Made by a program: the position numbers and the translations under genes
In this document: positions 9,696-44,416 of the stretch, in pieces
Numbering within the stretch: the stretch's first letter is position 1
Layout: each line of letters begins with the position of its first letter
Assembly: GCA_031459385.1 (NCBI GenBank)
Contig: JAVKIP010000021.1
Coordinates: 1-48,169, forward strand
DNA length: 48,169 bases
Direction: 5' to 3'
DNA from: Candidatus Fervidifonticultor secundus
Lineage (GTDB): Bacteria > Sysuimicrobiota > Sysuimicrobiia > Sysuimicrobiales > Humicultoraceae
Notes under the pieces: generated by a model
The model's input: only the letters and a program-made list of their open reading frames with translations
Told to the model about the DNA's origin: nothing
Database searches by the model: none

Positions 9696-11318
9696 GTGAT
9701 CGCCATCCTGCTCTGCGCAGACCTCGAGACCCCAGGCGCCGGGATCGACCTGGCCGCAGTGGCCACCTGGCTGGAAGGAACCATTCCGCAGGCCCGCGTG
9801 CAGGTCGTCCCCGACCTGTGTGGACACCCAGGACGCATCGCGCCCTCCCTGGCGCAGCGCGCGCCTGAACGCGTGGTGCTGGGCCTGTGCACGCGCCCAC
9901 GCGCTCGGGCTGACCTGCAGCGCGCGATGCGCCGGGCCGGTCTCGACCCCCTGCTGGTGGAGACCGTCGATCTCGGCGCATGTGCCGCCCGCGCGCACCC
10001 GCGGGCGCATGCCACGGCCAGAGCCAGAGCGCTGCTGGCCGGTGCTGCGGCCAGGGCCTGCACGGCGCAGCCCACCCGTCCCGAGCAGGCACGGCCCGTG
10101 GCCCGCGTGCCGCTCAGCCGACGCGCCCTGCTGCACCTGGCCTGGCTCGACTACGAGAGCGTGCCCGTGGTGGCTGCCGACCGGTGCCGGGCCGGACGCG
10201 GGTGCGCGCTGTGCGCCGATGCCTGTCCGCGCGCAGCCCTGCGGGTGGTCGACGGCACGGTAGAGCTTGACCGGCAGACCTGCACCGCGTGCGGACTTTG
10301 CGTGACGGCGTGCCCGTCGGGGGCCGTGGAACTGCCAGGGGCAATGCCCGCGCAGATCGAGGCCCAGCTGGCCGCGCTCCTGGAGGCTGCGGGGAGCGAG
10401 CTGGGCCCGCCGGTCATCGTCTTCACCTGCCGGCACAGCCCGGGCGATTTGGGGACGCGCCGGGGTGAGACGCACCCGCCGGGCTGGCTCCCGGTCGAGG
10501 TCCCGTGCGTCGCGATGGTGCCGCCCGCGTGGCTGCTGGGGACGCTGGCGCTGGGAGCCGCCGGGGTGGTCGTGCTGCCAGCCGCGGCCGGGTGCCCCGA
10601 CGGGACGGCTGCCCAGGTCGCCGCGCGGGTGGACTACTGCCGCGCGGTGTTGCGCCGGCTGGGGGAACCACCGGAACGGGTGACGGCACTGCCGGCCGGG
10701 AACCGGCCGGCGAGGCGCACAGGGGTCAGTGCAGCGCCCGGACTCGCGGCCGCCGCAGGGCCGCGACCGTCAGAAGGCTTCCTCGCGCCGGGCAGCTGGG
10801 CCCGCCTCTTCCTCCATCTGGCCAGCGTGAGTGACCCGACTGCGGCATGGCACATCGCGCATCCGCACTCGCCCTTCGGCGTCGTGGACGTGGGCCCAGG
10901 CTGCACGCTGTGCGGGAGCTGCGTCCGCGCCTGCCCCACCGACGCGCTCACGCTGGCGCACGACGCCGCAGGCGTGGCCGTGGTCTTTGCGCCCGCACTG
11001 TGCGTCGGATGTGGCCGGTGCGTGTCCGCCTGCCCGGAGGCCGGCATGCTGCGCCTCGAGCGCGTCACCGACCTGGCGCGGCTGCGAGCGGGCCCTGCGA
11101 CCCTCGCGCACAGCCCGCACCGGCGGTGCGCGCACTGCGGGGCCGCCTTCGCCGCCGAGGCGATGGTGGGCCGGATCGCCGCGCTGCTCGCCGACGTGGC
11201 CACCGCAGACGTCGTCACCCGCTACTGCCCGGACTGCCGGGCGGTCGCCGGAGGGCGGCTATCGGGCGGTGGCCCGGGGGTGCGCGGGGGTATTCCGCTC
11301 GCGGCGCTCGAAGGATAG
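9696..11318 (+). CDS. Polyferredoxin with HdrA-N-terminal-like and MvhD-like segments
   Basis: AILLC...DLC...VVLGLC...AGLDP...CAARAH..ATARARALL (HdrA N-terminus-like); CALCADAC, CTACGLCVTAC; IVFTC...VPCVAMV (MvhD-like); CTLCGSCVRAC, CVGCGRCVSAC; CAHC...CPDC. GTG start inferred. Confidence 0.75.
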   Translation: MIAILLCADLETPGAGIDLAAVATWLEGTIPQARVQVVPDLCGHPGRIAPSLAQRAPERVVLGLCTRPRARADLQRAMRRAGLDPLLVETVDLGACAARAHPRAHATARARALLAGAAARACTAQPTRPEQARPVARVPLSRRALLHLAWLDYESVPVVAADRCRAGRGCALCADACPRAALRVVDGTVELDRQTCTACGLCVTACPSGAVELPGAMPAQIEAQLAALLEAAGSELGPPVIVFTCRHSPGDLGTRRGETHPPGWLPVEVPCVAMVPPAWLLGTLALGAAGVVVLPAAAGCPDGTAAQVAARVDYCRAVLRRLGEPPERVTALPAGNRPARRTGVSAAPGLAAAAGPRPSEGFLAPGSWARLFLHLASVSDPTAAWHIAHPHSPFGVVDVGPGCTLCGSCVRACPTDALTLAHDAAGVAVVFAPALCVGCGRCVSACPEAGMLRLERVTDLARLRAGPATLAHSPHRRCAHCGAAFAAEAMVGRIAALLADVATADVVTRYCPDCRAVAGGRLSGGGPGVRGGIPLAALEG

Positions 11319-11360
11319 GGCCTGCACCCGATTGGCAGCTCCTCGCCCCATCCCTAGTCT
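11315..11360 (+). promoter_or_regulatory. Palindromic box plus -10-like hexamer (promoter of the ttr-like operon)
   Basis: ATAGGG-CCTGCA-CCCGAT (11315-11332), 22 nt, TAGTCT (11355-11360). Confidence 0.7.
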
Positions 11361-11390
11361 CGAAACGAGAACCGCCCTGGGAGGAGGCCG

Positions 11391-12356
11391 ATGGTGCCTG
11401 CGCGGCAACGCTCCGCTTCACTGCACCTCGACCCAGCTGTCGAGCCCACTACCAAGCCCGTCGTATCGGACAGACCCGACGCGGCCTCGCGCCGCGGCTT
11501 CCTGAGAACGCTCGGCGCCAGCGCCGCGACCCTGATGGCGCTGGACATCCTGGAAAGCCTCGTCGCCCCGCCGGCGGCTGACGCGGCGACCGCAGCCCCC
11601 GCGCCGGCCCCGACGAAGGCCCCACCGCCGCCGGCCGGCGCTGCCGACCCGGTGCCGCCCGACGTCCTGGTCCGCATGCGGGCCGACCTCGAGCGCGCCC
11701 TGGCCAAGCCCGCCACCCAGCGGCAGTGGGTAATGGTCATCGACCTGCGCAAGTGCGTGGGGTGCAGCGCGTGCACCATCGCCTGCGTCGCCGAGAACAA
11801 GCTGCCGCCGGGCGTGGTCTACCGGCCGGTCGTAGAGGAGGAGCTCGGCACCTACCCGAACGTCACGCGCCGGTTCCTCCCACGGCCCTGCATGCAGTGC
11901 GACAACCCCCCGTGCGTGCCGGTCTGCCCGGTGAGCGCGACCTACAAGCGCCCCGACGGCATCGTCGCCATCGACTACGACGCGTGCATCGGGTGCCGGT
12001 ACTGCATCGTGGCCTGCCCCTACAACGCCAGGGTGTTCGACACCGGCGAACACTACACCGACGGGACCCCGGAACTGAACCTCGTCGAGCGCCTGCCGGC
12101 GTTCGAGTACGGCCAGCGGCGCACCCGCGAGCGCGACGCCTCCCCGGTGGGCAACGCCCGCAAGTGCCACTTCTGCACCCACCGGCTGGAGGCCGGGCTG
12201 CTGCCGGCGTGCGTGACGACCTGCATCGGCCGCGCTACCTTCTTTGGCGACGCCAGCGACCCCGACAGCCTGGTCAGCGAGCTGATCGCCAGGCCCAACG
12301 TCATGCGCCTGAAAGAAGATCTGGGGACGCGGCCGCGCGTCTACTACCTGCTGTGA
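11391..12356 (+). CDS. Tat-signal 4Fe-4S subunit, TtrB/SrdB-like
   Basis: [47 protein letters not shown]...CVTTC. RBS GGAGGAGG. Confidence 0.9.
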
Positions 12357-12366
12357 GGAGGAGACC

Positions 12367-13592
12367 ATGAAGCGCCTGCTCTACGCAGTGTGGATCGCGG
12401 CCTTCGTCCTGGGCCTGTGGGGCGTGTGGGAACGCCTCACCCTCGGGCATCGCCTGACCGGGTACGGGTCCTACATCGTCTGGGGACTGTGGGTGTCGGC
12501 CTACATCTACCTGGTCGGCCTCTCGGCCGGCGCGTTCCTGCTGTCGTCGCTCATCTACGTCTTCGGGGTCCAGCGCCTGGAGCGGATCGGCAAGCTCGCC
12601 CTGTTCACGGCCATCGTCACGCTGCTGGTGGCGCTGCTGTCCATCTGGTTCGACCTGGGCCACATGAGCCGGTTCTACGAGGTCTACACCCGTCCCAACT
12701 TCCGGTCGATGATGGCCTGGATGATCTGGCTCTACTCGGGCTACTTCGTGCTGCTGCTGGCCGAGGGGTACCTGGTCTTCCGTCCTGACCTGGTGCGGTG
12801 GAGTCAGGACGCCACGCGGTCCCCGTTGCAGCGGACCGTGGCCCGCTGGTTCACCCTGGGCCGCACCGCGCTGGACGAGGCCACGCTGGCGGCCGAGCGG
12901 CGCTGGGTGCAGGTGCTGGGTACCATCGGCGTGCCGCTGGCCATCGCCTTCCACGGCGGCGTCGGCGCCCTCTTCGCCACCGTCAGCGCCAAGCTCTACT
13001 GGCACCAGTCGCTGGTGCCCATCCTGTTCCTGACCGGCGCGCTGGTCTCCGGCGGAGGCCTGCTAACCGCCCTGGTGGCGTTCGCGTGGCGCCAGCGCGA
13101 CGGAGAATATCGCAACCTCGTAGCCCTGCTCGGCCGGCTGCTGCTGGTCCTGGTCCTGGTGGACGTCCTGCTGGAGTGGGCCGAGTTCTCAATCCCGCTG
13201 TGGTACGGCACCAGCCCCGAAGGGCAGCTGCTGCGTCAGGTGCTGTTCGGCCCGTACTGGTGGGTCTTCTGGCTGGTGCACGTGCTGCTGGGAGTGGTCA
13301 TCCCGGTCGTGCTGCTGGGCGCGCGGGGCCGGCAGCCTGCGGCCGTGGGGACGGCCGGACTGCTGGTCGCCGCCACGTTCATGAGCGTCCGCCTCAACGT
13401 CGTCATCCCCGCGCAGATCGAGCCGGCCCTGCGCGGCCTGGAACGAGCGTTCGTCAGTCCGCGCCTGGTGTTCCAGTACGCCCCCACCGGGCACGAGTGG
13501 CTGGTGGCGCTCTTCGTGTTGACGGTGGGTGCCGGGCTCTTCTGGGTCGGTGCCAGGTTCCTGCCCCTGCTCGAGGCGAAGGAGGTCGCGCG

Positions 13593-13596
<4 letters not shown>
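12367..13596 (+). CDS. NrfD-family membrane subunit, TtrC/SrdC-like
   Basis: [53 protein letters not shown]. Confidence 0.9.
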
Positions 13597-16840
<3,244 letters not shown>

Positions 16841-16844
<4 letters not shown>

Positions 16845-17906: not shown

Positions 17907-18680
17907 GTGGGCGTGTCGGTCCGCCTCCCGTCTCCGCTCGTCCCTGTAACGGTGCTGGACCGGGTGAACCGGTTCGCGGTGCACGCACGGGCCGGCCGCC
18001 GACGCCTGGTGCTGCACCTCCCCAACCCGGGCCGCATGGCCGAGTTGCTCGTGCGAGGAGCGCACGGGCTGGCCGCGCTCACCCCGTCGCGCTCCCGCCG
18101 GACCGCCGGCACGTTGCTCGTGGTCCGTCATCGGGGCCGGTGGGTGGGTATGGACGCCCGCCTGCCTAACCGCCTCTTCGAGGAAGCGCTCCGGACGGGT
18201 GCGCTGGCGCCCTTTCGCGGCTACCGGCGCTGGCGGCGGGAGGCGCCGCTTGGCGGTTCCCGGATCGACTTCGTCCTGGAGGGCCCCAGCGGCCGCTGCC
18301 TTGTCGAAACCAAATCGTGCAACCGGGTGGACGGCGGCGTCGCCCTCTTCCCCGACGCGCCCACCACCCGGGGCGCCGCGCACCTGCGCCTGCTGGCCCG
18401 GGCCGCGCGCGCAGGCCGGCGGGCCGCGGTGGTCTGGTTCATCCAGCGCGACGACGCGCGGATCCTGCGGCCCTTCGCCGAACTGGACCCGCAGTTCGCC
18501 CGGGCTGCGCGGCAGGCCAAGCGGCGCGGGGTCGAGTTCTATGCCTACACGTGCCGGGTGACCCCCTGGGCGATCACGGTGGACCGGGCTATCCGGGTCG
18601 CCGTGTGTGAGGCACGTTTCCAAAAATCGGCTCGTCGCCCGATTGCGCAGGCCCCTGGAGGCGCCTACAAAGAGACGTAA
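17907..18680 (+). CDS. sfsA: DNA/RNA nuclease SfsA
   Basis: RVNRF, HLPNPGRMAEL, SRIDF, LVETKSC, FPDAPTTRGAAHL, DPQFA. Confidence 0.92.
   Translation: MGVSVRLPSPLVPVTVLDRVNRFAVHARAGRRRLVLHLPNPGRMAELLVRGAHGLAALTPSRSRRTAGTLLVVRHRGRWVGMDARLPNRLFEEALRTGALAPFRGYRRWRREAPLGGSRIDFVLEGPSGRCLVETKSCNRVDGGVALFPDAPTTRGAAHLRLLARAARAGRRAAVVWFIQRDDARILRPFAELDPQFARAARQAKRRGVEFYAYTCRVTPWAITVDRAIRVAVCEARFQKSARRPIAQAPGGAYKET
18626..18671 (+). promoter_or_regulatory. Palindromic box plus -10-like hexamer (promoter of the nxr-like operon, inside the sfsA 3' end)
   Basis: ATCGGC-TCGTCG-CCCGAT (18626-18643), 22 nt, TACAAA (18666-18671). Confidence 0.65.
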
Positions 18681-18687: not shown

Positions 18688-18716
18688 CGTCAAAATAGCC
18701 GGATTTCTCCGATTCG
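18688..18716 (+). promoter_or_regulatory. Putative repressor (Rrf2?) operator, copy 1
   Basis: CGTCAAA-N6-GGATTTCTCCGATTCG; the last 16 nt are identical to 29303-29318. Confidence 0.55.
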
Positions 18717-18789: not shown

Positions 18790-21700
18790 ATGGAGGCAGA
18801 CGACGCGCGCGCCAGGCCGGTGCCGCCCGATCCCGACGCCACCGCCCCGGGGCCGTCTGGCCTGCGGCGCCGCCAGTTCCTCCAGCGCACCAGCGAACTC
18901 GCCAGCGGCGCGCTGCTGGCCCAGGCCCTGCCGCTGCAGCTGCTCCAGACGCTGTCCACCGTGCCGAATCCCTTGGAAGCCTACCCCGACCGGGGCTGGG
19001 AGCGTGTCTACCGCGACCAGTACCGCTACGATCACAGCTTCACGTTCGTCTGCTCGCCGAACGACACCCACCACTGCCGGCTGCGGGCGTTCGTGCGCAA
19101 CGGCGTCATCGTCCGCATCGAGCAGAACTACGACGTCGACCGCTACCGCGACCTCTACGGGAACCGCGCCACCCCCGCGTGGAACCCCCGGGGGTGCCTG
19201 AAGGGCTACACGTTCCACCGGCGCGTCTACGGGCCCTACCGCCTCAAGTACCCCATGGTCCGGCGGGGCTGGAAGCAGTGGGCCGACGACGGCTACCCCG
19301 AGCTGACCAACGAGCGACGCCGGCAGTACCGGTTCGACAGCCGGGGGCAGGACACGTTCGTCCGGGTCTCGTGGGACGAGGCGTACGCGTACATCGCCTC
19401 GGCCTTCATCGCCATCGCCCGCCGGTACAGCGGCGAAGACGGCGCCCGGCGCCTGCTGGCCCAGGGCTACCCGCCCGAGATGGTGGAGGCGATGCACGGC
19501 GCCGGCGTGCGCACCTTCAAGTTCCGCGGCGGGATGGGCCTGCTGGGCGTCATCGGCAAGTACGGCCTGTGGCGGGCGGCCAACATGATGGCCCTGCTGG
19601 ACGCCCACGTGCGCGGGGTGGGGCCCGACGAGGCGTTGGGCGCCCGCAAGTGGAGCAACTACACCTGGCACGGCGACCAGGCGCCGGGCATGCCCTTCGT
19701 CCACGGCCTGCAGACCTCCGACGTGGACTTCAACGAGCTGCGCTGGGCCCGCCTGCACATCCAGGTCGGGAAGAACCTCGTCGAGAACAAGATGCCCGAG
19801 AGCCATTTCTTCATCGAGCTGATGGAGCGGGGCGCGAAGATCGTCGTCATCACCCCCGAGTACAGTCCCCCCGCCACCAAGGCCGACTACTGGATGCCCA
19901 TCCGCCCCCAGACCGACGCGGCGCTTTTTCTGGGCATCACCCGGCTGATGATGGAGCGCGGCTGGTACGACGAGACGTTCGTGCGCCAGTTCACCGACTT
20001 TCCGCTGGTCATCCGGACCGACACGCTGCAACGGCTGCGCGCCCACGAGGTCTTCCCCGACTACCGGCCGGGCCTCGGGCCCGATGGCCCCAGCTTCGCG
20101 CGGCAGAACCTCAAGCCCGACCAGTACGCGAAGCTGGGCGACTTCGTGGTCTTCGACAAGAGCACCGGGCGCCTGCGGGCGCTGACCCGCGACGACGTGG
20201 GGCAGCGCATGGCCGCCAGGGGCATCACGCCTGCCCTGGTCTGGCGCGGGAAGGTGCGCCTGACAGACGGGCGCGAGGTCGAGTGCCTGACGCTGTGGGA
20301 AGCCTACCGCGACCACCTGCGCGACTACGACCTGGACACGGTGGCGGAGATCACGCAGGTGCCCAGGCGCATGATCCAGCGCCTGGCCCGCGACATCGCC
20401 ACCATCAAGCCCGTGGCCATCCACATCGGCGAGGGGATCAACCACTGGTTCCACGCCACGTTGGCCAACCGTGCGTTCTACCTGCCGCTGATGCTGACCG
20501 GGAACATCGGGAAGCCTGGCGCGGGCTGCCACACCTGGGCCGGGAACTACAAGGCGGGCATCTTCCAGGGCTCGCCGTGGACCGGCCCGGGCATCACGGG
20601 GTGGCTGTTCGAGGACCCCTTCCACCCGACGCTGGACCCCAGCGCCCACGGGAAGACGGTGAAGGTCCGCAAGTACCTCAAGGATGAAGAACCGGCCTAC
20701 TGGAACCACGGCGACGTTCCCCTGATCGTCACGACGCCCAAGGCCGGCCGCAAGGTCTTCACCGGCCAGACGCACATGCCGACGCCCACGAAGGTGATCT
20801 GGTACAACAACGTCAACCTCATCAACAACGCCAAGTGGGCCTACGGGGTCATCAAGAACGTCAACCCCAACGTCGAGCTGATCATCAACCAGGACGTGGA
20901 GATGACCGCTTCGGCGGAGTACGCCGACGTCATCCTGCCGGCCACTACCTGGGTGGAGTTCCGATCGTGGGAGCTGACGGCCTCGTGCAGCAACCCCTTC
21001 CTGCAGATCTGGAAGGGCGGGATCCGGCCGCTGTTCGACACCAAAGACGACGCGCTGATCATCGCCGAGGTGGCGGCCAAGCTGTCGGTGAAGACGGGGG
21101 ATCCGCGCTTTCGCGACTACTTCCGCTTCATCCTGGAGGGTCGCCCGGAAGTCTACATCCAGCGTATCCTGGACAGCAGTACCTCCACCGCCGGCTACCG
21201 GTTCGAGGACATCGTGGCGGGGAAGTACGGCGAGCCTGGCGCAGCCCTCATGCTCTTCCGCACCTATCCCCGGGTACCGTTCTACGAACAGGTGCACGAC
21301 AGCGAGCCGTTCTACACCGACACCGGCCGGCTCAACGCCTACTGCGACATCCCCGAGGCCATCGAGTACGGTGAGAACTTCATCGTGCACCGCGAGGGCC
21401 CGGAGGCCACCCCCTACCTGCCCAACGTCATCGTCTCCAGCAACCCGCTGGTCCGGCCCGAGGACTACGGCATCCCCCTCGATGCCCTGCACTGGGACCA
21501 GCGTACCGTGCGCAACGTCAAGCTGCCGTGGGCGCGGGTCAAGCAGACCCAGAACCCGCTGCGGGCGCGCGGCTACCGGTTCTACTGCCTGACCCCGAAG
21601 ACCCGGCACCGCGTCCACTCGTCGTGGAGCAGCACCGACTGGAACCTGATCTGGGACTCCAACTTCGGCGACCCCTACCGGCTGGACCGGCGCACGCCCG

Positions 21701-22302
21701 GGGTGGGCGAGCACCAGCTCCACATGCACCCGCAGGCGGCGCGTGATCTGGGCATCAACGACGGCGACTACGTCTACGTCGATGCCTTCGCCGGCGACCG
21801 CCCGTATCTCGGGTGGAAGCCTGACGACCCCTTCTACCGGGTGGCGCGGTGCATGGTGCGGGTGAAGTACAACCCCGCCTACCCCTACGATGTGGTGATG
21901 ATGAAGCACGCGCCCTTCATCGCCACCGAGAAGTCGGTGAAGGCCCACGAAAGCCGGCGCGACGGCCTGGCGCAGTCGGCCGACACGGGCTATCAGGCCA
22001 ACTTCCGGTATGGCAGCCAGCAGTCGGTGACCCGCAACTGGCACATGCCCATGCACCAGACCGACTCGCTGTTCCACAAGTCGAAGGGCGCTGTGGCGTT
22101 CCTCTTCGGCGGCGAGGCCGACAACCACGCCGTCAACACCGTGCCCAAAGAAACCCTGGTGAAGATCACCAAGGCCGAAGACGGAGGCCTGGGCGGTCGA
22201 GGCGTCTGGGAGCCCGCCCGCACGGGCCATACCCCTGGCCGGGAGCGGCCGTTCATGCGACGCTACCTGGCTGGCGGGCTGGTCAGGATCACGAAGGCGT
22301 GA
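18790..22302 (+). CDS. nxrA: Periplasmic-type nitrite oxidoreductase/nitrate reductase alpha subunit (Nitrospira/anammox NxrA-like), 1170 aa
   Basis: Tat RRRQFLQ; WERVYRDQY; FS0 C-x3-D-x3-C-x39-C (CSPNDTHHC...RGCLKG); RGGMGLLG; NYTWHGDQ (Asp Mo ligand); GEGINHWFH; QANFRYGSQQS; NTVPKET. Confidence 0.9.
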   Translation: MEADDARARPVPPDPDATAPGPSGLRRRQFLQRTSELASGALLAQALPLQLLQTLSTVPNPLEAYPDRGWERVYRDQYRYDHSFTFVCSPNDTHHCRLRAFVRNGVIVRIEQNYDVDRYRDLYGNRATPAWNPRGCLKGYTFHRRVYGPYRLKYPMVRRGWKQWADDGYPELTNERRRQYRFDSRGQDTFVRVSWDEAYAYIASAFIAIARRYSGEDGARRLLAQGYPPEMVEAMHGAGVRTFKFRGGMGLLGVIGKYGLWRAANMMALLDAHVRGVGPDEALGARKWSNYTWHGDQAPGMPFVHGLQTSDVDFNELRWARLHIQVGKNLVENKMPESHFFIELMERGAKIVVITPEYSPPATKADYWMPIRPQTDAALFLGITRLMMERGWYDETFVRQFTDFPLVIRTDTLQRLRAHEVFPDYRPGLGPDGPSFARQNLKPDQYAKLGDFVVFDKSTGRLRALTRDDVGQRMAARGITPALVWRGKVRLTDGREVECLTLWEAYRDHLRDYDLDTVAEITQVPRRMIQRLARDIATIKPVAIHIGEGINHWFHATLANRAFYLPLMLTGNIGKPGAGCHTWAGNYKAGIFQGSPWTGPGITGWLFEDPFHPTLDPSAHGKTVKVRKYLKDEEPAYWNHGDVPLIVTTPKAGRKVFTGQTHMPTPTKVIWYNNVNLINNAKWAYGVIKNVNPNVELIINQDVEMTASAEYADVILPATTWVEFRSWELTASCSNPFLQIWKGGIRPLFDTKDDALIIAEVAAKLSVKTGDPRFRDYFRFILEGRPEVYIQRILDSSTSTAGYRFEDIVAGKYGEPGAALMLFRTYPRVPFYEQVHDSEPFYTDTGRLNAYCDIPEAIEYGENFIVHREGPEATPYLPNVIVSSNPLVRPEDYGIPLDALHWDQRTVRNVKLPWARVKQTQNPLRARGYRFYCLTPKTRHRVHSSWSSTDWNLIWDSNFGDPYRLDRRTPGVGEHQLHMHPQAARDLGINDGDYVYVDAFAGDRPYLGWKPDDPFYRVARCMVRVKYNPAYPYDVVMMKHAPFIATEKSVKAHESRRDGLAQSADTGYQANFRYGSQQSVTRNWHMPMHQTDSLFHKSKGAVAFLFGGEADNHAVNTVPKETLVKITKAEDGGLGGRGVWEPARTGHTPGRERPFMRRYLAGGLVRITKA

Positions 22303-23976: not shown

Positions 23977-23980
23977 GGCC

Positions 23981-26667: not shown

Positions 26668-26713
26668 ATCGGGGCGCCGCCCGATGGCGGGGCGCCACAG
26701 TTTCCGCTAGCCT
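26668..26713 (+). promoter_or_regulatory. Palindromic box plus -10-like hexamer (cupredoxin/radical SAM operon)
   Basis: ATCGGG-GCGCCG-CCCGAT (26668-26685), 22 nt, TAGCCT (26708-26713). Confidence 0.75.
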
Positions 26714-29237: not shown

Positions 29238-29283
29238 ATCGGGCCGCCGCCGGATTGTGAGGCCACAGGCGCTTCCCTAGTGT
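29238..29283 (+). promoter_or_regulatory. Palindromic box plus -10-like hexamer (rrf2-nos operon)
   Basis: ATCGGG-CCGCCG-CCGGAT (29238-29255), 22 nt, TAGTGT (29278-29283). Confidence 0.7.
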
Positions 29284-31828: not shown

Positions 31829-31855
31829 CGGGGAGGGGCCCTTTGCCCCTCCCCG
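31829..31855 (+). other. 11-bp perfect GC hairpin between nosZ and nosL
   Basis: CGGGGAGGGGC-CCTTT-GCCCCTCCCCG, abutting the nosL RBS, with no U-tract. Confidence 0.7.
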
Positions 31856-31866
31856 GGAGGCCGACG

Positions 31867-32337: not shown

Positions 32338-34391
32338 TGCGGCGCGCGCCGGCCGGGCCGGTGCCGGCCGACGGACGCCGGAGGGTCGTCGCGGGCGCGG
32401 CCCTGGTCCTGCTGCTGGCGGGCGGGGCACTGCCCCTGTGGCGGATGACGCTGTACGCGCCCCAGTACCCGCAGGGCCTGCGCCTGGTCATCGACGGCCG
32501 TGGGCTGCGGGGGGACGTGGACGAGATCAACGCCCTGAACCACTACATCGGCATGCGCCAGCTGCCCGGCGGGGAGCGGCCCGTGCTCTACCGCGGCGAG
32601 GAGGACGACGAGGCCCAGGCCGAAGCGATCCCCGAGCTGGCCCTGTTCTTCCCGAGCGTCGCCCTGCTGGCCCTGGGCATGGCGCTCACCGCGGTGGTGC
32701 CCTGGCGGTGGCTCCGGCGGCTGGTGGTCGCCGGTGCGTGGACGCTGCCCGTGGTCTTCCTGGCCGACCTGCAGTACCGGCTGTACGTGTACGGGCACAC
32801 GCTGGACCCGGAGGCCGCGATCCGGCTGCCGCGGTTCACCCCGCGCGTGCTGGGGCCGACGTCGGTGATGAACTTCAACGTCACCGCGCTGCCCGGGCCG
32901 GGCCTGGTCCTGCTGGTGCTGAGCGCGCTGGTGCTCACTGTCGGCCCGGCGATGCGCACCGGGCGCCCGACCCGCCTGGCCGCTCGGCTGCTGGCAACCG
33001 CAGCGACGCTGCTGGTGGTGGCCGTGGCGGTGGCCGCGCCCTGGGCGCCGGCGCACGCGACGACCCCGGGCGTGGCGCCAACGGCCACGGCGGCGCCGGC
33101 GTTCGACCTGGCCGCCGCGGTGGCGGCGGCGCCGACCGGCGCGGTCATCGAGGTGCCACCGGGGACCTACTCCGGGCCGCTGGTACTGACGCGTCCCGTC
33201 ACGCTGCGCGGGCGGGGCTGGCCGGTGATCGACGGCGGCAGGCGCGGGCACGTGGTGGTCATCACCGGCCCGGAGGTACGCCTCGAGGGCTTCGTCGTCC
33301 GCGGCAGCGCGCTGGCCTACAGCAGCGAGGCAGCCGGCATCGTCGTCCAGGGCGCGCGGGCGGTGGTGCGGGGCAACCGCATCGAGGACGTGCTGTTCGG
33401 TCTCTACCTGGCCGGCGCCTCGGACGCCGTGGTGGAGCAGAATACGATCGCCACGGCCGACCTGCCGCTGGAACGCCGGGGCCACGCGGTCTACCTGTGG
33501 CGGGTGCGGGGCGCCCGCCTGCGCGACAACCGCATCACGCGCGGCAAGGACGGGTTCTACTTCTCGTTCTCGGCGGACACCCAGGTCGAGGGCAACACCG
33601 TCACCGGGTGCCGGTACGGCATCCACTACATGTACGCGAATGGGAACGCCTTCGTGGACAACGTCTTCGTCGATAACGCGGTGGGCGCCGCGGTCATGAA
33701 CTCCACTGACGTGCGGCTGGTGGGCAACACCTTCCAGGGCAGCCGGTCCGCGGCCACCGGGGTCGGGCTGATCCTCAAGGATGCCGACCGGGTCCTGGTG
33801 CGCGGCAACCGCATCGTGGGCAACGCCACCGGCATCGAGGTGGAGAACGCGCCGGCCGCCTCCGACGGCTGGGTGCGCCTGGAGCAGAACCTGATCGCCT
33901 TCAACGGCGTCGGGTTCAGCCTGATGAGCACCGCAGCCATCACCGCCACCGGGAACGCCATCGTCGAGAACCTGCGGCCCGTGCAGCCGCGCGGCGCGCT
34001 GCGCGCGGAGGCGAACCGGTGGAGCGAGGGCGGCCGGGGCAACTACTGGAGTGACTACGCCGGCTTCGACGCCGACGGCGATGGCGTGGGCGACGTGCCG
34101 TACAGCCGCGCAGACGTCCTGGAAGACCTGGTCGCCCGGGCGCCCGCCCTCCAGGCGCTGCTCTTCACACCCGCGCACCACGCCCTGGAGACCGCGGCCC
34201 GCCTGGCACCGCTCGTGCGCGGCGCGCCGCTGCTAGTGGACCCCGCGCCGCTGGTCCGGCCGCCGGTGCCTGGCGCGCTGCCGGTGCCGGAACATGGCGC
34301 ACGGGACCGGACCGGCATCCTGTGGGTGGGGCTCGGGCTGCTGCTCCCCGGCGTGGCTGCAGCCGCGGCGCGGAGCCAGAGACGCGCATGA
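32334..34391 (+). CDS. nosD: NosB-like membrane domain fused to NosD beta-helix maturation protein
   Basis: N-terminal part LYAPQYPQGL...INALNHYIGM...YGHTLDP.A.I (clade II NosB-type); C-terminal part G.Y.GPL, RGHAVYLW, RYGIHYMY, GNYWSDYAGFDADGDGVGD.PY. Confidence 0.88.
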   Translation: MMRRAPAGPVPADGRRRVVAGAALVLLLAGGALPLWRMTLYAPQYPQGLRLVIDGRGLRGDVDEINALNHYIGMRQLPGGERPVLYRGEEDDEAQAEAIPELALFFPSVALLALGMALTAVVPWRWLRRLVVAGAWTLPVVFLADLQYRLYVYGHTLDPEAAIRLPRFTPRVLGPTSVMNFNVTALPGPGLVLLVLSALVLTVGPAMRTGRPTRLAARLLATAATLLVVAVAVAAPWAPAHATTPGVAPTATAAPAFDLAAAVAAAPTGAVIEVPPGTYSGPLVLTRPVTLRGRGWPVIDGGRRGHVVVITGPEVRLEGFVVRGSALAYSSEAAGIVVQGARAVVRGNRIEDVLFGLYLAGASDAVVEQNTIATADLPLERRGHAVYLWRVRGARLRDNRITRGKDGFYFSFSADTQVEGNTVTGCRYGIHYMYANGNAFVDNVFVDNAVGAAVMNSTDVRLVGNTFQGSRSAATGVGLILKDADRVLVRGNRIVGNATGIEVENAPAASDGWVRLEQNLIAFNGVGFSLMSTAAITATGNAIVENLRPVQPRGALRAEANRWSEGGRGNYWSDYAGFDADGDGVGDVPYSRADVLEDLVARAPALQALLFTPAHHALETAARLAPLVRGAPLLVDPAPLVRPPVPGALPVPEHGARDRTGILWVGLGLLLPGVAAAAARSQRRA

Positions 34392-35311
34392 TCGAGATCG
34401 TCGACCTGCGCAAGCGCTTCGGCGCCACGCTGGCCGTGGACGGGATCACCACATCGATCGGCGCGGGCGAGTTTGCGGTGCTGCTGGGTCAGAACGGCGC
34501 CGGCAAGACCACGCTGCTGCGCTGCCTGCTGGGTCTGCTGGCCTACGAGGGCACGGTCCGGGTCGGCGGCGTGGATGTGGCCCGCGACGGCCGGACTGCG
34601 CGCCGCCTGATCGGCTACGTCCCGCAGCGGCCGGCGTTTCCGACCGAGCTGACCTGCGCGGAAACCCTGGACCTGTTCGCGCGGCTGCGCGGGCAGCCCG
34701 CGGGTGACGCCTCCTGGCTGGCCCGCGTCGGCCTCGAGGCCCAGGCGCGCACGCCGGTGCGCGCGCTCTCGGGCGGCATGCGGCAGCGCCTGGCCCTGGC
34801 CGTGGCGCTGCAGGCGGCGCCCCGCGTGATCCTGTTCGACGAACCGGCCGCGCACCTGGATGTCGCCGCGCGGCGCGCGCTGCACCGCGACCTGCAGACG
34901 CTGGTCGCAGAGGGCCGGACGGTCGTCCTGTCGACCCATCTGGCCGCCGAATCCCTGCAGCCCGCCACCCGGGCGCTGGTGATGGACCGCGGGCGGCTCG
35001 TCTACGACGGCCCGCCGCAAGAGCTGGGCAGCGCCGTCCAGCAGCGCATCGTCTTCACGTTGAACGGCAGCGGCCGCGACGACCTGCTGACCATGCTGGC
35101 GGCCATGGCCGACGTGACGGCCAGCGCGGCGGGTGCGACGGTGGTGGCGCTGGCGCCGGCGGGGCGCGCCTTCGACGTGCTGGCCGCGGTGGCGGCCGCG
35201 GGCATCCGGCCGGTGGCGGTGCACGTCGAGGAGCCGGCGGTGGACAGCGCGCTGGTTGCCGCCGGGCGCCGTCCGGGCGCGGCGCGACCGGCGCGGGAGG
35301 GTCGCGCATGA
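34388..35311 (+). CDS. nosF: ABC transporter ATPase NosF
   Basis: GQNGAGKTT, LSGGMRQR, ILFDEP, STH; nos context. Confidence 0.9.
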   Translation: MIEIVDLRKRFGATLAVDGITTSIGAGEFAVLLGQNGAGKTTLLRCLLGLLAYEGTVRVGGVDVARDGRTARRLIGYVPQRPAFPTELTCAETLDLFARLRGQPAGDASWLARVGLEAQARTPVRALSGGMRQRLALAVALQAAPRVILFDEPAAHLDVAARRALHRDLQTLVAEGRTVVLSTHLAAESLQPATRALVMDRGRLVYDGPPQELGSAVQQRIVFTLNGSGRDDLLTMLAAMADVTASAAGATVVALAPAGRAFDVLAAVAAAGIRPVAVHVEEPAVDSALVAAGRRPGAARPAREGRA

Positions 35312-36135
35312 CGGCGGCGCGCGTGCTGATCGTGCACGAACTGGGCGACGCCCTGCGCAGCCGGTGGCTGCTGGCGTACGCCGTGCTCTTCGCGGTGCTG
35401 GCGCTGGGCCTGTCGCTGGTAGGCCTGCAGGGCGTCGGGGCCGTGGGCCTGGAAGGCTACGGCCGCACCACTGCCAGCCTCATCAACCTCTGTCTGCTGC
35501 TGGTGCCACTGGTAGCGCTGCTGCTGGGCAGTAGCGGCGTGGCCGCCGACCGCGAGAGCGGCGTGCTGGAGCTCCTGCTGGCCCAGCCCGTCGGCCGTAG
35601 CGAACTGCTCCTCAGCCGTTTCGCGGGCGCCCTGGCCGCCGTCGCGGCGGCGACCATGCTCGGCTTCGGCATCGCCGGGGTCCTCATCGGGCTCGCCACC
35701 GGCACCGCAGGCGGCCTGCGCTACCTGGCCTTTGTCGGCATCGCGCTGGTCCTGGCCGGCGCCTACCTAGCCGTCGGCCTGGCGATCTCCGTGGTCGCGC
35801 GCAGCCGTACGCGGGCCACCGCGGCGGCGCTCGCGGTCTGGTTCGCGAGCGTAGTCGTCTTCGATCTGCTGTTGATCGGGGCGGGCGCCTTCGCCCTGGC
35901 CGGCGTTCGGGGTCTGGCCGCGGCCCTGCTGCTGAACCCCGTGGAGATCGCCCGGCTGCTGGCGCTGCTGGTGCTGGACCCCACGCTGGAGGTGCTGGGG
36001 CCCGTCGGCGGGTTCCTCGTCGCGCGGTTCGGCGCCGCAGGCGTCACCGGCCTCCTGCTGGGCGCGCTGGCCGTCTGGACGCTGGGCCCGCTGGCTGTGG
36101 CCGCGGCCCTCTTCGAAGGCGGCGACGTGCCGTGA
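35308..36135 (+). CDS. nosY: ABC transporter permease NosY
   Basis: ELGDALRSRW, RTTASLINL, DRESGVLELLLAQP, LLLNP; multiple TM segments. Confidence 0.9.
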   Translation: MTAARVLIVHELGDALRSRWLLAYAVLFAVLALGLSLVGLQGVGAVGLEGYGRTTASLINLCLLLVPLVALLLGSSGVAADRESGVLELLLAQPVGRSELLLSRFAGALAAVAAATMLGFGIAGVLIGLATGTAGGLRYLAFVGIALVLAGAYLAVGLAISVVARSRTRATAAALAVWFASVVVFDLLLIGAGAFALAGVRGLAAALLLNPVEIARLLALLVLDPTLEVLGPVGGFLVARFGAAGVTGLLLGALAVWTLGPLAVAAALFEGGDVP

Positions 36136-36785
36136 CGCACGGACGGCGCCCTGCCGGTGGCGGCAGCCTGTGGCTCGCCGCCGCCGCCGGCGTGGCGGTC
36201 GCGGTGCTGGTAGCGGTGATCCACTACCGCACCCCGGCACCCCCAACGCTCACCGTGTCTGCGCCGCCGGAGCCCGGCGGGAAGACGCGCGGGGCGGCGG
36301 CTGCGCCTGTGGCCGTCGAGATCTTCTCCGACTTCCTGTGCCGCCACTGTGCCACCCTGGCTCGCGAGGTGGAACCGGCCCTCGTGGCGCGCTACGTGGA
36401 ACCCGGCGCCGCGCGGCTGGTCTACCGGAACTTCCCCGTCCTCGGGCCGCTGTCGGAGCAGGCTGCGGTGGCCAGCGAGTGCGCGGTGGAGCAGCGGCAC
36501 TTCTGGGCGTACCACGACCGGCTCTTCGCGCGGGCACGGCGCGGCGCGCTGCGGTCCGCGCGCGACCTGGAAGCCGCTGCGCGCGAAGTCGGCCTCGCGG
36601 TCGAAGCGTTCAACGCCTGCCGCGCCGGGGATGCCGCGCGCGCCCGCGTCGAGGCCGACGTGCGCGAGGGTCTCCGCCGCGGCGTGCGCGGAACGCCGAC
36701 CAGCTTCGTCGACGGCCGGATGATCGTCGGCGCGCAGCCGCTGGAGGTCTTCGGTGCGGCCATCGAGGCCGCCAGAGCGCGGTAG
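36132..36785 (+). CDS. DsbA/BdbD-family thiol-disulfide oxidoreductase
   Basis: FSDFLCRHC, YRNFP, FWAYHDRLF, GVRGTPT, GAQP. Confidence 0.9.
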   Translation: MTHGRRPAGGGSLWLAAAAGVAVAVLVAVIHYRTPAPPTLTVSAPPEPGGKTRGAAAAPVAVEIFSDFLCRHCATLAREVEPALVARYVEPGAARLVYRNFPVLGPLSEQAAVASECAVEQRHFWAYHDRLFARARRGALRSARDLEAAAREVGLAVEAFNACRAGDAARARVEADVREGLRRGVRGTPTSFVDGRMIVGAQPLEVFGAAIEAARAR

Positions 36786-36792
36786 CGCCGGA

Positions 36793-37200
36793 GTGTGGTG
36801 GGGCGCCGCCGGGCTGGCAGCTGGCGGCGTGGTGGTCACGGGTGTGCTGACCGCCCTGGCCGCGCGCGGGGCTCCGCCGGTCTGCCTGGTCGGCGCCTGC
36901 GAAGTGGTCTCCAGTGGGCCCTACGCGCGCTTCCTGGGCCTCCCGCTGGGGGTGTGGGGCCTGGCGGCCTTCGCCGTGGTGACAGCCGTGGCCCTTCTGG
37001 GCGCCCGTGGTGCCAGGCGGCGCGCGGTCCTGCTACCGGTGCTGGTCGGCCTGGTCGCGTTCGGCGCCGGCTTCTCGGCCTACCTGACCTGGCTCCAGGT
37101 GGTCGTGCTGCGGGCGGTCTGTGCCTGGTGTGCCGCGAGCGCCCTCGTATGGGCCGCGCTGGCGGCTACCGGGGGCCTGCTGGCCGCCTCGCGGCCCTAG
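36793..37200 (+). CDS. Vitamin K epoxide reductase (VKOR) family protein
   Basis: CLVGACEVVSSGPYA...GLP; YLTWLQ...AVCAWC. Start inferred. Confidence 0.85.
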   Translation: MWWGAAGLAAGGVVVTGVLTALAARGAPPVCLVGACEVVSSGPYARFLGLPLGVWGLAAFAVVTAVALLGARGARRRAVLLPVLVGLVAFGAGFSAYLTWLQVVVLRAVCAWCAASALVWAALAATGGLLAASRP

Positions 37201-37229: not shown

Positions 37230-37275
37230 ATCCGTCCTGCGCCCGATGGGCCGCGGTGCGCCGTGCCCCTACCAT
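37230..37275 (+). promoter_or_regulatory. Degenerate palindromic box plus -10-like hexamer (hemerythrin-CBS-por operon)
   Basis: ATCCGT-CCTGCG-CCCGAT (37230-37247), 22 nt, TACCAT (37270-37275). Confidence 0.65.
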
Positions 37276-37306: not shown

Positions 37307-37804
37307 ATGAGCAGAGCCAAGGTGACGCTGCTCGAGGCGTACCGGAGCGAACACACCGACCTGAGCGCCGGGCTGGAGGCCCTGACGCAGATGCTCGATC
37401 GCCTGCGGGACGGCAGGCCCGCCCCGGGGGCGGTGGGGGAGACGGAGCGCTTCTTCCGCAGGGTGATGATTCCGCACGCGGAGTGGGAAGAACTGACGTT
37501 CTACCCCGCGGCGGGCGAGTTGCTCCGCGAACACGGCGACGTGAATGCCGCCATGGTCATGGACCACCGGGAGATCGCCTCACGGGTCTCCGATCTGCTG
37601 GCGCTGCTGCAGCGGATCGAGGCCGGCGACTGCGACCCCGCGCTGGTCGACCGTGCCCGCATCCTCGGCTACCAGATCCGTGCACTGGTCGAGGTGCACT
37701 GCCGCAAGGAGGAGGAGATCTACTGTTCCTTGCTGCACCGGTATCTCTCCGACCGGGACGTCGTGCACGCCCTCGCGGTCGGCGACCAGCTCGGACACGA
37801 CTGA
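37307..37804 (+). CDS. Hemerythrin-like (HHE) domain protein
   Basis: EH, HAEWEE..FYP, DHREI, HCRKEE. Confidence 0.85.
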   Translation: MSRAKVTLLEAYRSEHTDLSAGLEALTQMLDRLRDGRPAPGAVGETERFFRRVMIPHAEWEELTFYPAAGELLREHGDVNAAMVMDHREIASRVSDLLALLQRIEAGDCDPALVDRARILGYQIRALVEVHCRKEEEIYCSLLHRYLSDRDVVHALAVGDQLGHD

Positions 37805-41729: not shown

Positions 41730-41775
41730 ATCGGGCGGCCGCCCGATGGTTCTCCGCGCGCCATCGCGCGATGCT
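41730..41775 (+). promoter_or_regulatory. Perfect palindromic box plus weak -10 (rrf2-2 / multicopper oxidase operon)
   Basis: ATCGGGCGGCCGCCCGAT (41730-41747), 22 nt, GATGCT (41770-41775). Confidence 0.65.
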
Positions 41776-41831: not shown

Positions 41832-42233
41832 ATGCAGCTGACGCGACAAGCCGATTACGCCGTCCGGATCGTGCTGGACCTGACCGGCCGCTACCCTCAG
41901 GGTGTCGCCCGCTCCGCCGAGATCAGCCGGCGCCAGCACGTGCCGCGGGCCTTCCTCGCCAAGATCGTGCGCGGGCTGGCGCGCGCCGGCATCGTGCAGA
42001 CGGCCCGCGGGGCAGGCGGCGGGATCCGACTGGTCGAGGACCCCTCGCAGCTCACGCTGCGGCAGGTCATCGAGGCCATCGAGGGCCCGATCCGGCTCAA
42101 CCGCTGCCTGCTCCGGCCGCGCGAGTGTCCGCTCGACCGGACGTGCCCGGTGCACCCGGTGTGGCAGCGGGTCCAGCGCGTCCTCATCCGGGAGCTCGAC
42201 GCCGTCACGTTCGCTCAGCTTCGACACCCATGA
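41832..42233 (+). CDS. Rrf2-family Fe-S transcriptional regulator 2
   Basis: MQLTRQADYAVR, FLAKI, RGAGGGIRL, IEGP, CLLRPRECPLDRTCPVH. Confidence 0.93.
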   Translation: MQLTRQADYAVRIVLDLTGRYPQGVARSAEISRRQHVPRAFLAKIVRGLARAGIVQTARGAGGGIRLVEDPSQLTLRQVIEAIEGPIRLNRCLLRPRECPLDRTCPVHPVWQRVQRVLIRELDAVTFAQLRHP

Positions 42234-42300: not shown

Positions 42301-43485
42301 ATGTACAGGAATCGCGTGATCAGGATCGGGGCGGCGACCCTGGCCGTCGCCCTGCTGGCGGGTGCCGGCGTGCTGACCGGGTGGCCCCGGCTGTCGCGGG
42401 GCGACCCGGACGCATTGCACAACCACGCGCACCGAGCCCTTGATGAATCCCGGGACGCCGGCTTGGCGGCGGCCGGCGCCTGGCAACCGGCCCCCATGTT
42501 CATGGACCTGCTGATGGGCGGCCCCCTGGCGGCCCAGGCGGCGCAGCGCGTAGCCGCGCAGGTGGCGGCGGGCGCCGCACCGGCCGCGCCGACACCCTCC
42601 CCGCGCGTCTCCCAGCAGGGCGGCAAGACCGTGCGCGAGTACACCCTCGAGATCGTCGAGCGCACCATCGACTTCGGGGGCGGGAACACCTGGACCGTGT
42701 GGACGTACAACGGCACGGTGCCCGGGCCGACGCTGCGCGTGAAGGTGGGCGAGATCCTGCGGGTACGGGTGGTCAACCGCCACAACCGCGTCCACTCCTT
42801 CCACACCCACCTGAGCCACTACCCGCTGGAGAACGACGGCTCCCAGGCCAACATCATCAGCGGGAAGGGCACCGGCGCCATGATCCCGCCCGGCAAGGAG
42901 TACGTCTACACCTTCCGGCCCGACCGGGCCGAGGCCACCTACTACCACTGCCACTCGGCCGACAAGGAGTTCCCGATCAATCAGCACATGCTCCAGGGGC
43001 TCTACGGCGTGGTGGTGGTCGAGGATCCCAAGGCGGCGGCCGGGCGCGAGGAGGTGCTCTTCATGGCCGAGACGACGCGCCTCAAGCAGGGCACCAGGGT
43101 ACCGCCCTACGTCATGAACGGGCTGGGCGTCCCTGGCGGCGAGCTGGCCCTGGAGGAGATCTACAAGGAGAAGGGCCTCGACGGCGTGGTGGCGCAGCTG
43201 GGCAAGACCGTCCCCTTCTTCAAGATGAAGGTGGGCGAGCGGATGAAGCTGCACGTCGTCAACATCGGCAACCTCGACCACAGCCTCCACATCCACGAGA
43301 TCCCGCTGGTGTCGTTGGGAGTGCTGGGCGGCCGGCCCTGGCCGGCCCAGGTCGTGCCCCTGGTGGGCGGGGCGATGGACACGCTGCTGATCCAGTTCCG
43401 CTACCCCGGCCTGTGGCTCTTCCACTGCCATGTGGTGGACCACGCCGACCGGGGGATGGTGGGCGTGTTCGTCGTGGAGCCCTGA
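42301..43485 (+). CDS. Secreted two-domain multicopper oxidase
   Basis: WTYNGTVPGPTLRVKVGE; HSFHTH...YHCH...QHMLQGL; HSLHIH...FHCHVVDHADRGM. Confidence 0.85.
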   Translation: MYRNRVIRIGAATLAVALLAGAGVLTGWPRLSRGDPDALHNHAHRALDESRDAGLAAAGAWQPAPMFMDLLMGGPLAAQAAQRVAAQVAAGAAPAAPTPSPRVSQQGGKTVREYTLEIVERTIDFGGGNTWTVWTYNGTVPGPTLRVKVGEILRVRVVNRHNRVHSFHTHLSHYPLENDGSQANIISGKGTGAMIPPGKEYVYTFRPDRAEATYYHCHSADKEFPINQHMLQGLYGVVVVEDPKAAAGREEVLFMAETTRLKQGTRVPPYVMNGLGVPGGELALEEIYKEKGLDGVVAQLGKTVPFFKMKVGERMKLHVVNIGNLDHSLHIHEIPLVSLGVLGGRPWPAQVVPLVGGAMDTLLIQFRYPGLWLFHCHVVDHADRGMVGVFVVEP

Positions 43486-43518: not shown

Positions 43519-43564
43519 ATCGGGTGGAGACCCGATGGCCCACCGCCGCCCGCTCGGCTAGGCT
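43519..43564 (+). promoter_or_regulatory. Palindromic box plus -10-like hexamer (CBS gene 2)
   Basis: ATCGGG-TGGAGA-CCCGAT (43519-43536), 22 nt, TAGGCT (43559-43564). Confidence 0.75.
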
Positions 43565-43592
43565 GACTGGTAATCTCCCACGGGGCCCGGAG

Positions 43593-44309
43593 ATGCTGGT
43601 TCGGGACTGCATGACGCCTGACCCGACCACCGTGGCGCCGCAGACGTCGCTGGGCGACGCGCTGCGCGTGATGCGCCGGCAGCGGATCCGCCACCTGCCC
43701 GTGATGGAACGCGACCGCCTGGTGGGCATCGTGACCTGGACCGACCTGATGCGGGCATCGCCATCCCCGGCGAGCGGCTTGGCTGCCTGGGAGATCCCGG
43801 AGTTGCTGGCGCAGGCTCCCGTCCGCGACGTCATGACCGAGCACCCGGTGACGGTGGCACCAGACCTGCCCGTCGAGGATGCCGCCCGCCTGCTGCGGGA
43901 GCGCAAGATCGGCAGCCTGCCGGTGGTCGACGGCGACCGCCTCGTGGGCATCGTCACCGAGAGCGACCTCTTCGACGCATTGGTGCGGCTGCTGGGCGGC
44001 GATATCGGCGGCGTGCGCATGGCGGTCGACCTCCCCGCGGGCCTGGTCGACGTGGACCGGCTGATCCACGCCCTGGAAGGGGTCCGCGGCAAGACGCCGA
44101 CCGTGGTGATCGCCGTGCGGCTCGACCAGGCGACGCGCCGCGGCTATGTGCGGCTATCGACCGCCACGCCGCTGCAGGTGGCCGAGGCGCTGGCCGCCGA
44201 GGGGTTTCACGTCACACAGCTGAAGGTCAGCCCGCGACCGCGGCCGGACGCGCCGCAGGACCTGACGGTGCAGAGAGCCGACCCCACGACCGCACCGGGG
44301 CACCCCTGA
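43593..44309 (+). CDS. CBS-pair protein (AcuB-like) 2
   Basis: MLVRDCMT, RHLPVM, RLVGIVTWTDL, WEIP, KIGSLPVV, GIVTESDLF. Confidence 0.88.
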   Translation: MLVRDCMTPDPTTVAPQTSLGDALRVMRRQRIRHLPVMERDRLVGIVTWTDLMRASPSPASGLAAWEIPELLAQAPVRDVMTEHPVTVAPDLPVEDAARLLRERKIGSLPVVDGDRLVGIVTESDLFDALVRLLGGDIGGVRMAVDLPAGLVDVDRLIHALEGVRGKTPTVVIAVRLDQATRRGYVRLSTATPLQVAEALAAEGFHVTQLKVSPRPRPDAPQDLTVQRADPTTAPGHP

Positions 44310-44370
44310 CGTCTCCGCCGCGTTACCGGCGGCCGCGTCACCGCCGGCCCCGTCGCCTCCGGCGTTCCGA

Positions 44371-44416
44371 ATAGGGCACGGGCCCGATGGACGCCCCGGC
44401 CCGTGCGTGGTAATTC
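44371..44416 (+). promoter_or_regulatory. Palindromic box plus -10-like hexamer (hydrogenase operon)
   Basis: ATAGGG-CACGGG-CCCGAT (44371-44388), 22 nt, TAATTC (44411-44416), preceded by TGG. Confidence 0.7.

Follow-up and report, generated by a model that had tools for sequence, protein, structure and literature searches.

Introduction

In Escherichia coli, the response regulator NarL activates yeaR by way of a palindrome whose centre lies at -43.5, where it touches the C-terminal domain of the alpha subunit and not sigma region 4; class II sites of CRP lie at -41.5 (PMC10853779). In staphylococci, NreB carries a PAS domain with four cysteines, and phosphorylated NreC binds a GC-rich palindrome before the nar and nir genes (PMC8139620, PMC4601167, PMC8774646). 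AirS of Staphylococcus aureus binds a [2Fe-2S] cluster via the motif Cys-X7-Cys-X-Cys-X17-Cys, and DosS/T use tandem GAF domains with heme (PMC4601167). Here we analysed 48,169 nucleotides of DNA from Candidatus Fervidifonticultor secundus (assembly GCA_031459385.1, contig JAVKIP010000021.1, positions 1 to 48,169, forward strand), called the window below. An initial annotation of this sequence had proposed that a palindromic box, ATCGGG-N6-CCCGAT, lies exactly 22 nt upstream of a -10-like hexamer at nine promoters, and that one activator, probably of the NarL/NreC/DosR type, controls these promoters under anaerobiosis. We found that the box is almost certainly an operator used throughout the genome and the phylum. 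Its likely reader is a NarL-family regulator encoded on another contig next to a kinase with a cysteine-bearing GAF domain.

A palindromic box stands at a fixed distance from -10-like hexamers

The window is contig C14 of genome G000 (3.3 Mb, 72% GC, 97.6% complete), in which gene boundaries were taken from our own crude gene caller. All nine 18-mers of the initial annotation are present, and each is followed by the hexamer named for it exactly 22 nt past the box; the box at 29183 is on the minus strand. Allowing up to two mismatches, we counted 12 box matches in the window as compared to 3.4 ± 1.8 in shuffled sequences, and none of the 100 shuffles reached 12. Three further window matches (11261, 25168 and 44504) have no -10-like hexamer at that distance. 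The pattern TANNNT is fully fitted by six of the nine hexamers; after the boxes at 18626, 41730 and 44371, only two of its three fixed positions fit.

In the whole genome, exact boxes with the 6-nt core number 12, versus zero to two at each of 14 other core lengths. All 12 are intergenic, and intergenic DNA makes up 9.6% of the genome. When both orientations of the 36 boxes that have no more than one mismatch are read (72 in all), TANNNT stands at 22 nt in 13 cases versus about 0.08 expected, and at 23 nt in three further orientations. At up to two mismatches and with a full hexamer at 22 nt, the genome holds 21 sites, 20 of which are intergenic.

If the hexamer is set at -12 to -7 by the standard -10 numbering, the box spans -52 to -35 and is centred at -43.5. 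Together with the next five bases, the last T of the box makes up a weak hexamer of the -35 type, separated from the -10 by 17 nt. This overlap may account for the rigid 22-nt spacing, since five bases of the -35 and 17 nt of spacer follow the box end. With the hexamer placed in this way, the predicted site abuts the -35, and the activator-type geometry proposed at the outset is supported. Judged from the sequence, the box is almost certainly a real operator, and its reader is very likely an activator. The very rigid spacing between box and hexamer might also be a mark of an alternative-sigma promoter or of a repeat element, the unit then being no transcription-factor site. Such an explanation is extremely improbable: the element is palindromic, a 22-nt gap misfits the -35/-10 spacing of the sigma-70 family whereas 5 + 17 nt fits it, and the flanks and the inner six bases differ between copies, unlike those of a repeat.

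The box is conserved across the phylum

We searched 73 genomes of the phylum, which is likely Sysuimicrobiota, with a completeness of at least 85% for the unit box-N22-TANNNT with at most one mismatch, and the reversed unit served as the control. The unit was found in 61 of the 73 genomes, with 405 matches versus a single match of the control. Two sister species contain 16 and 18 exact boxes. The highest site counts, up to 29 sites, occur in family f4 (18 genomes). In the nearly closed sister genome G002, an island of 160 kb unites genes that in G000 lie on contigs C6, C14 and C13, and eight of the nine window boxes are kept there at orthologous promoters. The regulon, described as window-wide in the initial annotation, thus extends over the genome and the phylum.

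The picture differs outside the phylum: 46 genomes, most of them Chloroflexota, gave 15 matches of the unit versus 3 of the control and no more than two per genome. Two of the original 48 genomes had been left out of this set, as their regulators are 80–81% identical and they probably belong to the same phylum. With the third base of the box left free, the same 46 genomes gave 8 matches versus 3 in the control, at most one per genome, and no regulon.

A NarL-family regulator on another contig is the likely reader

The initial annotation had expected a NarL-family reader rather than FNR or CRP. In agreement with this, no CRP/FNR-type regulator was found in G000 at its completeness of 97.6%. The cNMP matches are three stand-alone proteins of 142–152 aa, two of them at contig ends, and no protein that joins a cNMP domain to a Crp helix-turn-helix (HTH) domain was found. 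Matches to the Crp HTH are partial, and those inspected belong to other regulators. An FNR/CRP regulon is therefore rejected, as no such protein was found and the box is not of the FNR/CRP type. A single shared regulator is supported. It had been suggested to be either the regulator in the window (1493-2143) or a global one encoded elsewhere, and our data support the latter.

The candidate is encoded on contig C13 (positions 19634-20290, minus strand). It consists of a receiver and a LuxR/GerE HTH, as in the NarL/FixJ family, and its neighbour is a gene for a GAF kinase (C13:20266-21465). G000 has nine LuxR-type HTHs over the cut-off. We compared LuxR HTHs between five box-rich genomes, for which 30 of the 63 HTH matches were fetched. 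Within this set, the C13 HTH is 79–98% identical in all five genomes, and the best other LuxR HTH reaches at most 64% outside the genus. The recognition helix of the C13 regulator is nearly invariant next to the kinase in the loci read, and its pattern occurs in 55 of the 73 genomes. At least three sites are present in 40 of these 55 genomes versus 3 of the 18 without the helix, and each of these three has a close copy of the kinase. When either the helix or a close kinase is counted, a criterion chosen post hoc, the ratio becomes 43 of 60 versus 0 of 13. Within genera, the presence of the system goes clearly with that of the sites in g9, g15 and g28; the agreement is weak in g11 and g27, partial in g24 and absent in g22. 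In G002, the C13 pair lies about 18 kb beyond the hydrogenase genes, at the end of the same island. The co-occurrence of the C13 system with the box is suggestive and is not proof. Taken together, these comparisons make it likely that the C13 regulator reads the box.

A number of observations weigh against this assignment. The combined presence criterion is post hoc and the genomes are related, so that p-values overstate the co-occurrence. All seven genomes of genus g4 have the helix and only 0–2 sites each. In G077 (94% complete), a box precedes the NXR-like gene, and neither the sensor nor the helix was found. In G064, G068 and G078, both sites and the sensor are present without a match to the helix. 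The 4.2-kb loci of the C13 pair read in G000, G001 and G002, all of genus g1, contain no box. Outside the LuxR type, the survey covered regulator families in part, namely CRP/FNR and Rrf2. Imperfect co-occurrence (g4, G077), a C13 locus free of boxes in g1 and a phylum-wide survey of some families only would all be in line with another dimeric regulator of a non-LuxR type reading the box, the C13 pair accompanying it only because of a facultatively anaerobic lifestyle. We consider this quite unlikely: a GC-rich palindrome of 18 bp at -43.5 is what the NarL family would be expected to bind, no LuxR HTH other than that of C13 is conserved across the five box-rich genomes among the matches fetched, and none of the 18 genomes of family f4, where site counts are highest, has an Rrf2 regulator.

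Three other NarL-family regulators of G000 were considered as readers: the one in the window, one on contig C6 (32464-33126) and one on contig C30 (2270-2920), which we take to be DosR-like from the likeness of its helix and whose distribution does not follow that of the box. Each of the three lies within or close to a box-rich stretch, boxes precede the C6 and C30 operons, and the HTH of the window regulator is about 60% like that of the C13 regulator, so that cross-binding is possible. Their distribution in relatives argues the other way. None of 40 relatives has an orthologue of the window regulator at more than 59% identity; among those without one are both sister species, with their 16 and 18 exact boxes, and its best match in both is the orthologue of the C13 regulator. 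The block that holds it is missing from the G002 island, though eight of nine boxes are kept. The C6 regulator occurs in 10 of the 73 genomes and is not associated with site counts (median 4 versus 4, where no more than 41 candidates were scored in each genome); relatives of it occur in 46 genomes of other phyla, which have 0–2 sites each. The C30 regulator occurs in 9 of the 73 genomes, and in neither G001 nor G002. As sole readers, the three are largely refuted by these comparisons, and it is very improbable that any of them reads the box in place of the C13 regulator. A PAS-LuxR protein on contig C58 and the remaining LuxR HTHs were rejected as well, as they are not conserved outside the genus among the matches fetched. 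Rrf2 regulators have relatives in 23 of the 73 genomes. Because they are absent from family f4 (0 of 18), which has the most sites, the Rrf2 genes appear to be targets of the system and not its readers.

The paired kinase is a candidate iron-sulfur sensor

The C13 kinase is a soluble GAF-HisKA_3-HATPase protein with a single GAF domain at residues 22–160, and its AlphaFold model (pLDDT 87) has a GAF-DHp-CA fold. In 26 aligned homologues, Cys79-x-Cys81-x17-Cys99 and His115 are invariant, and the motif Cys-x-Cys-x17-Cys is kept in 98 of 107 homologues. We infer that the GAF domain may hold an iron-sulfur (Fe-S) cluster with the histidine as the fourth ligand. Searches of the ESM Atlas and of the PDB by sequence and fold with the sensor gave generic GAF or kinase matches only. 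In many members of the phylum (loci L149-L163), the Cys-GAF kinase is fused to an N-terminal multi-pass membrane region without a Pfam match. The kinase of genus g4, where boxes are few, is a membrane-fused form with Cys-His-Cys.

Outside the window, boxes of G000 precede genes for Usp, CBS and baeRF10 proteins, formate-THF ligase, gap-pgk-tpi, enoyl-CoA hydratase and ABC transporters; further boxes lie beside a Psr-like operon, moeA-mobB, malic enzyme and citrate synthase. We also scanned the first genes behind sites in three other families (five genomes, 29 genes), of which 17 have a Pfam match and 12 have none. The matched ones include three CBS and two Usp proteins, a GNAT-CoA ligase, a flavoprotein oxidoreductase, a UbiA-family protein, OsmC, a DtxR-like regulator, a kinase and transporters. 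Usp, CBS/BON, an SQR-like flavoprotein and a UbiA-family prenyltransferase appear again among the targets of other families.

Low oxygen is suggested as the signal because of the targets (nosZ, Ttr-like, por, hydrogenase and dormancy genes) and because no FNR was found. From the targets and the sensor, anaerobiosis would be a reasonable reading of the regulon signal, and it is somewhat probable that the polarity is that of activation at low oxygen. Several facts are less favourable. The first cysteine of the AirS type is missing in all 98 homologues that bear the motif. AirS is reported to be fully active when oxidised, and its polarity is disputed (PMC8774646); accordingly, the polarity here could be reversed. 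In addition, gapA-pgk-tpi, citrate synthase and the ABC transporters are among the targets, and none of them is specifically anaerobic.

It is possible that the same box and the same C13 system respond to another signal, such as oxidation, NO or sulfide, or belong to a general stationary-phase programme. AirS, the nearest match to the motif, is reported to be fully active as an oxidised [2Fe-2S] protein and sensitive to H2O2 and NO (PMC8774646, PMC4601167). Usp, CBS and metabolic genes account for many of the targets, and an extra membrane domain, present in about half of the examined sensors, suggests other inputs. On the other hand, the strongest targets in the window are O2-sensitive or belong to anaerobic respiration (nosZ, Ttr-like, por, uptake hydrogenase), and no FNR/CRP-type oxygen sensor was found for that job. 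On balance, a signal other than low oxygen appears unlikely.

Predicted promoters and neighbouring genes in the window

The box at 11315-11332 (plus strand, one mismatch; hexamer TAGTCT at 11355-11360) precedes a ttrB/C/A-like operon (11535-16844), in which TtrB and TtrA are the best NCBIfam matches, below the cut-off. G002 has an orthologous box. The next unit (18626..18671, plus strand, one mismatch, weaker hexamer TACAAA) lies ahead of a periplasmic NXR-type operon (18790-26624). By our own gene calls, its box sits within the 3' end of an sfsA-like gene (17952-18680), which is found between the ttr-like and NXR-like operons in G000 and G002 alike.

A unit without mismatches (26668..26713, plus strand, TAGCCT) precedes a cupredoxin gene (26744-27202) and a radical SAM gene of the heme-synthesis type (27787-28845), and in G002 the box is kept ahead of the radical SAM gene. 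Two boxes, both conserved in G001 and G002, face away from each other. The first one (29183-29200, minus strand, no mismatches; hexamer TACGGT at 29160-29155) precedes an orphan gene for a 93-aa protein (28854-29135, minus strand) without a Pfam match. A related orphan gene on contig C13 (12219-12473, minus strand) also stands behind a box; the two proteins are of 84–93 aa, helical and rich in Arg and Ala. Similar small genes stand behind boxes in G053 and G031. The second unit of the divergent pair (29238..29283, plus strand, one mismatch, TAGTGT) precedes an Rrf2 gene (29319-29798) and a clade II nosZ-nosL-nosD-nosFY operon (29817-37200), in which TIGR04246 is matched above the cut-off.

The unit at 37230..37275 (plus strand, two mismatches, TACCAT; orthologous box in G002) lies ahead of a hemerythrin-domain gene (37307-37804), a CBS gene and por genes (to 41666). 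The unit at 41730..41775 (plus strand, no mismatches, weaker hexamer GATGCT) lies ahead of an Rrf2 gene (41832-42233) and a two-domain multicopper oxidase gene (42301-43485), and it is the sole one of the nine boxes without a counterpart in the G002 island. The multicopper oxidase has an N-terminal signal-like segment and a NirK score of 73 versus a cut-off of 296 bits, and its gene is grouped with the nos and NXR-like genes; it is possibly a divergent nitrite reductase. The nos, multicopper oxidase and por units named in the initial annotation are thus present, but the first genes after the boxes at 29238 and 41730 encode Rrf2 proteins, and the first gene after the box at 37230 encodes the hemerythrin-domain protein. 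A further unit (43519..43564, plus strand, no mismatches, TAGGCT) precedes a CBS-domain gene (43593-44309), and its box is conserved in G001 and G002. The last one (44371..44416, plus strand, one mismatch, weaker hexamer TAATTC) precedes hypA and [NiFe] uptake hydrogenase genes (44474-47758); its counterpart in G002 is exact and has a full TANNNT. The hypB gene is found twice at the start of contig C13 (7-558 and 674-1333), where the assembly seems to be broken from C14.

The degenerate copy reported at 3828-3845 is present before the hexamer at 3867, but with four mismatches and a spacer of 21 nt instead of 22. It lies on the plus strand (3828..3872) ahead of a Psr/Phs-like molybdoenzyme operon (3890-11318), and the orthologous promoters in G004 and G053 carry a better box. 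Probably, the copy has decayed or been retuned to the local two-component system. The latter consists of an sCache_3-HAMP-HisKA_3 kinase (73-1512, plus strand) and the NarL-family regulator at 1493-2143 (plus strand). The G002 island lacks both this system and the Psr/Phs-like operon (together 73-11318). Orthologues of the Psr/Phs-like operon lie directly upstream of nxrA in G004, G053 and G020.

An identical 16-nt element occurs at 18701-18716 and 29303-29318, just 3' of the -10 in the promoter of the NXR-like operon and in that of the Rrf2-nos genes. Its 14-nt core has two other matches only in the genome at up to two mismatches. A related palindrome follows the promoter at 41730, and variants occur in G002. 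The element is a candidate operator of Cys-bearing Rrf2 repressors, which would add a second layer of control.

The NXR-like operon

The gene at 18790 matches NxrA of Kuenenia (PDB 7B04) with 1768 bits over residues 25–1167. The operon has the features of a periplasmic NXR of the anammox/Nitrospira type: full-length likeness to NxrA and beta, chaperone and heme-b subunits. Orthologues of its box at 18626 are present in G001, G002 and G007. We found 21 NXR-like loci in 94 genomes, and upstream DNA was readable for 18 of them. A box with a hexamer within 640 nt was present in 11 of these 18: seven of the eight distant homologues have one, as do four of the ten close ones. The NXR-like gene of G004 and G053 stands behind a Psr-like operon whose start is a box. 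No box was found in the NXR-like upstream stretch examined in G013, G042 and G036. Nitrite oxidation is suggested for the Nitrospira/anammox-type NXR of two families in PMC11604079. If the low-oxygen polarity holds, co-regulation with the clade II nosZ through the box would point to nitrate reduction by the NXR-like enzyme. With the box as a low-oxygen signal, nitrate reduction would be favoured, and the reading of NXR genes in metagenomes would change.

Discussion

Taken as a whole, a low-oxygen switch that acts through the box and consists of the C13 NarL-family regulator and its GAF kinase with a predicted Fe-S cluster is reasonably probable on the sequence evidence. In this model, Cys79-x-Cys81-x17-Cys99 of the kinase, possibly with His115 as the fourth ligand, would bind a redox- or O2-labile Fe-S cluster. 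The kinase would phosphorylate the C13 regulator, as the gene pairing and the domain type suggest, and the phosphorylated dimer would bind the palindrome at -52 to -35. The bound regulator may recruit RNA polymerase by analogy with NarL at yeaR. The output would comprise terminal reductases (NXR-like, N2O reductase, Ttr- and Psr-like), the uptake hydrogenase, and cofactor, fermentation and glycolysis genes, as well as dormancy genes of the DosR-regulon type (Usp, CBS, baeRF10).

A broader picture is tentative, and we regard it as less probable than its opposite. Here one phylum-wide system with a new Cys3-His Fe-S GAF sensor would replace FNR for the whole oxic-to-anoxic switch, horizontally gained respiratory operons would be wired in by acquiring the box, and the NXR would be an anaerobically induced nitrate reductase and not a nitrite oxidase.

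No description of the box or the regulon was found among the openly accessible papers listed for the motif, the phylum and the NreC site. Word searches in two papers on the phylum (PMC11604079 and PMC11962464) turned up nothing on regulation of this type. The mechanism is known in kind; what is new is the combination of its parts and the phylum in which it occurs. The analysis provides a predicted global regulon for a phylum that is widespread and uncultured, together with its operator, the geometry of its promoters and a candidate pair of sensor and regulator. As a sequence tag, the box can serve to predict co-induced genes, including unknown ones. The C13 kinase, which is small and soluble, is a candidate for a new set of Fe-S ligands and is amenable to in vitro work.

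Compared with known systems, the locus shares with NarL at yeaR a regulator with a receiver and a LuxR HTH, which would bind as a dimer, a palindrome upstream of a weak -35, and respiratory genes as predicted targets; with the hexamer at -12 to -7, the palindrome would also be centred at -43.5, as at yeaR. However, the 7-2-7 site at yeaR is AT-rich, and the box is GC-rich (PMC10853779). NarX and NarQ are nitrate sensors, whereas the C13 kinase is a soluble Cys-GAF protein with membrane-anchored relatives. In the equivalog comparison, the NarL score was 160 bits against a cut-off of 250, and the NarX score was 67 against 578.

Staphylococcal NreBC, a cytoplasmic Fe-S kinase with a NarL-family regulator in the place of FNR (PMC8139620, PMC4601167, PMC8774646), resembles the layout predicted here. 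It differs by the PAS domain of NreB, in place of which the C13 kinase has a GAF domain and no PAS match, and the regulon predicted here is wider (nos, hydrogenase and dormancy genes). The distance from GGG to CCC in the NreC site is presumably equal to that in the box.

With AirSR/YhcSR, the locus shares a paired regulator and the Cys-x-Cys-x17-Cys spacing, which on comparison with the published spacing matches the last three ligands of AirS (PMC4601167, PMC8774646). The C13 kinase has only these three of the four cysteines; the first one is absent, the invariant histidine may replace it, and the targets differ.

The DosR regulon contains Usp, CBS-domain and baeRF10 proteins, and the same types of genes lie here beside respiratory genes. 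Unlike DosS/T with their tandem GAF domains and heme, the C13 kinase has one GAF domain. By these comparisons, the C13 system appears to combine the logic of NreBC, a sensor like AirS and the geometry of yeaR, without matching any one of these systems in full.

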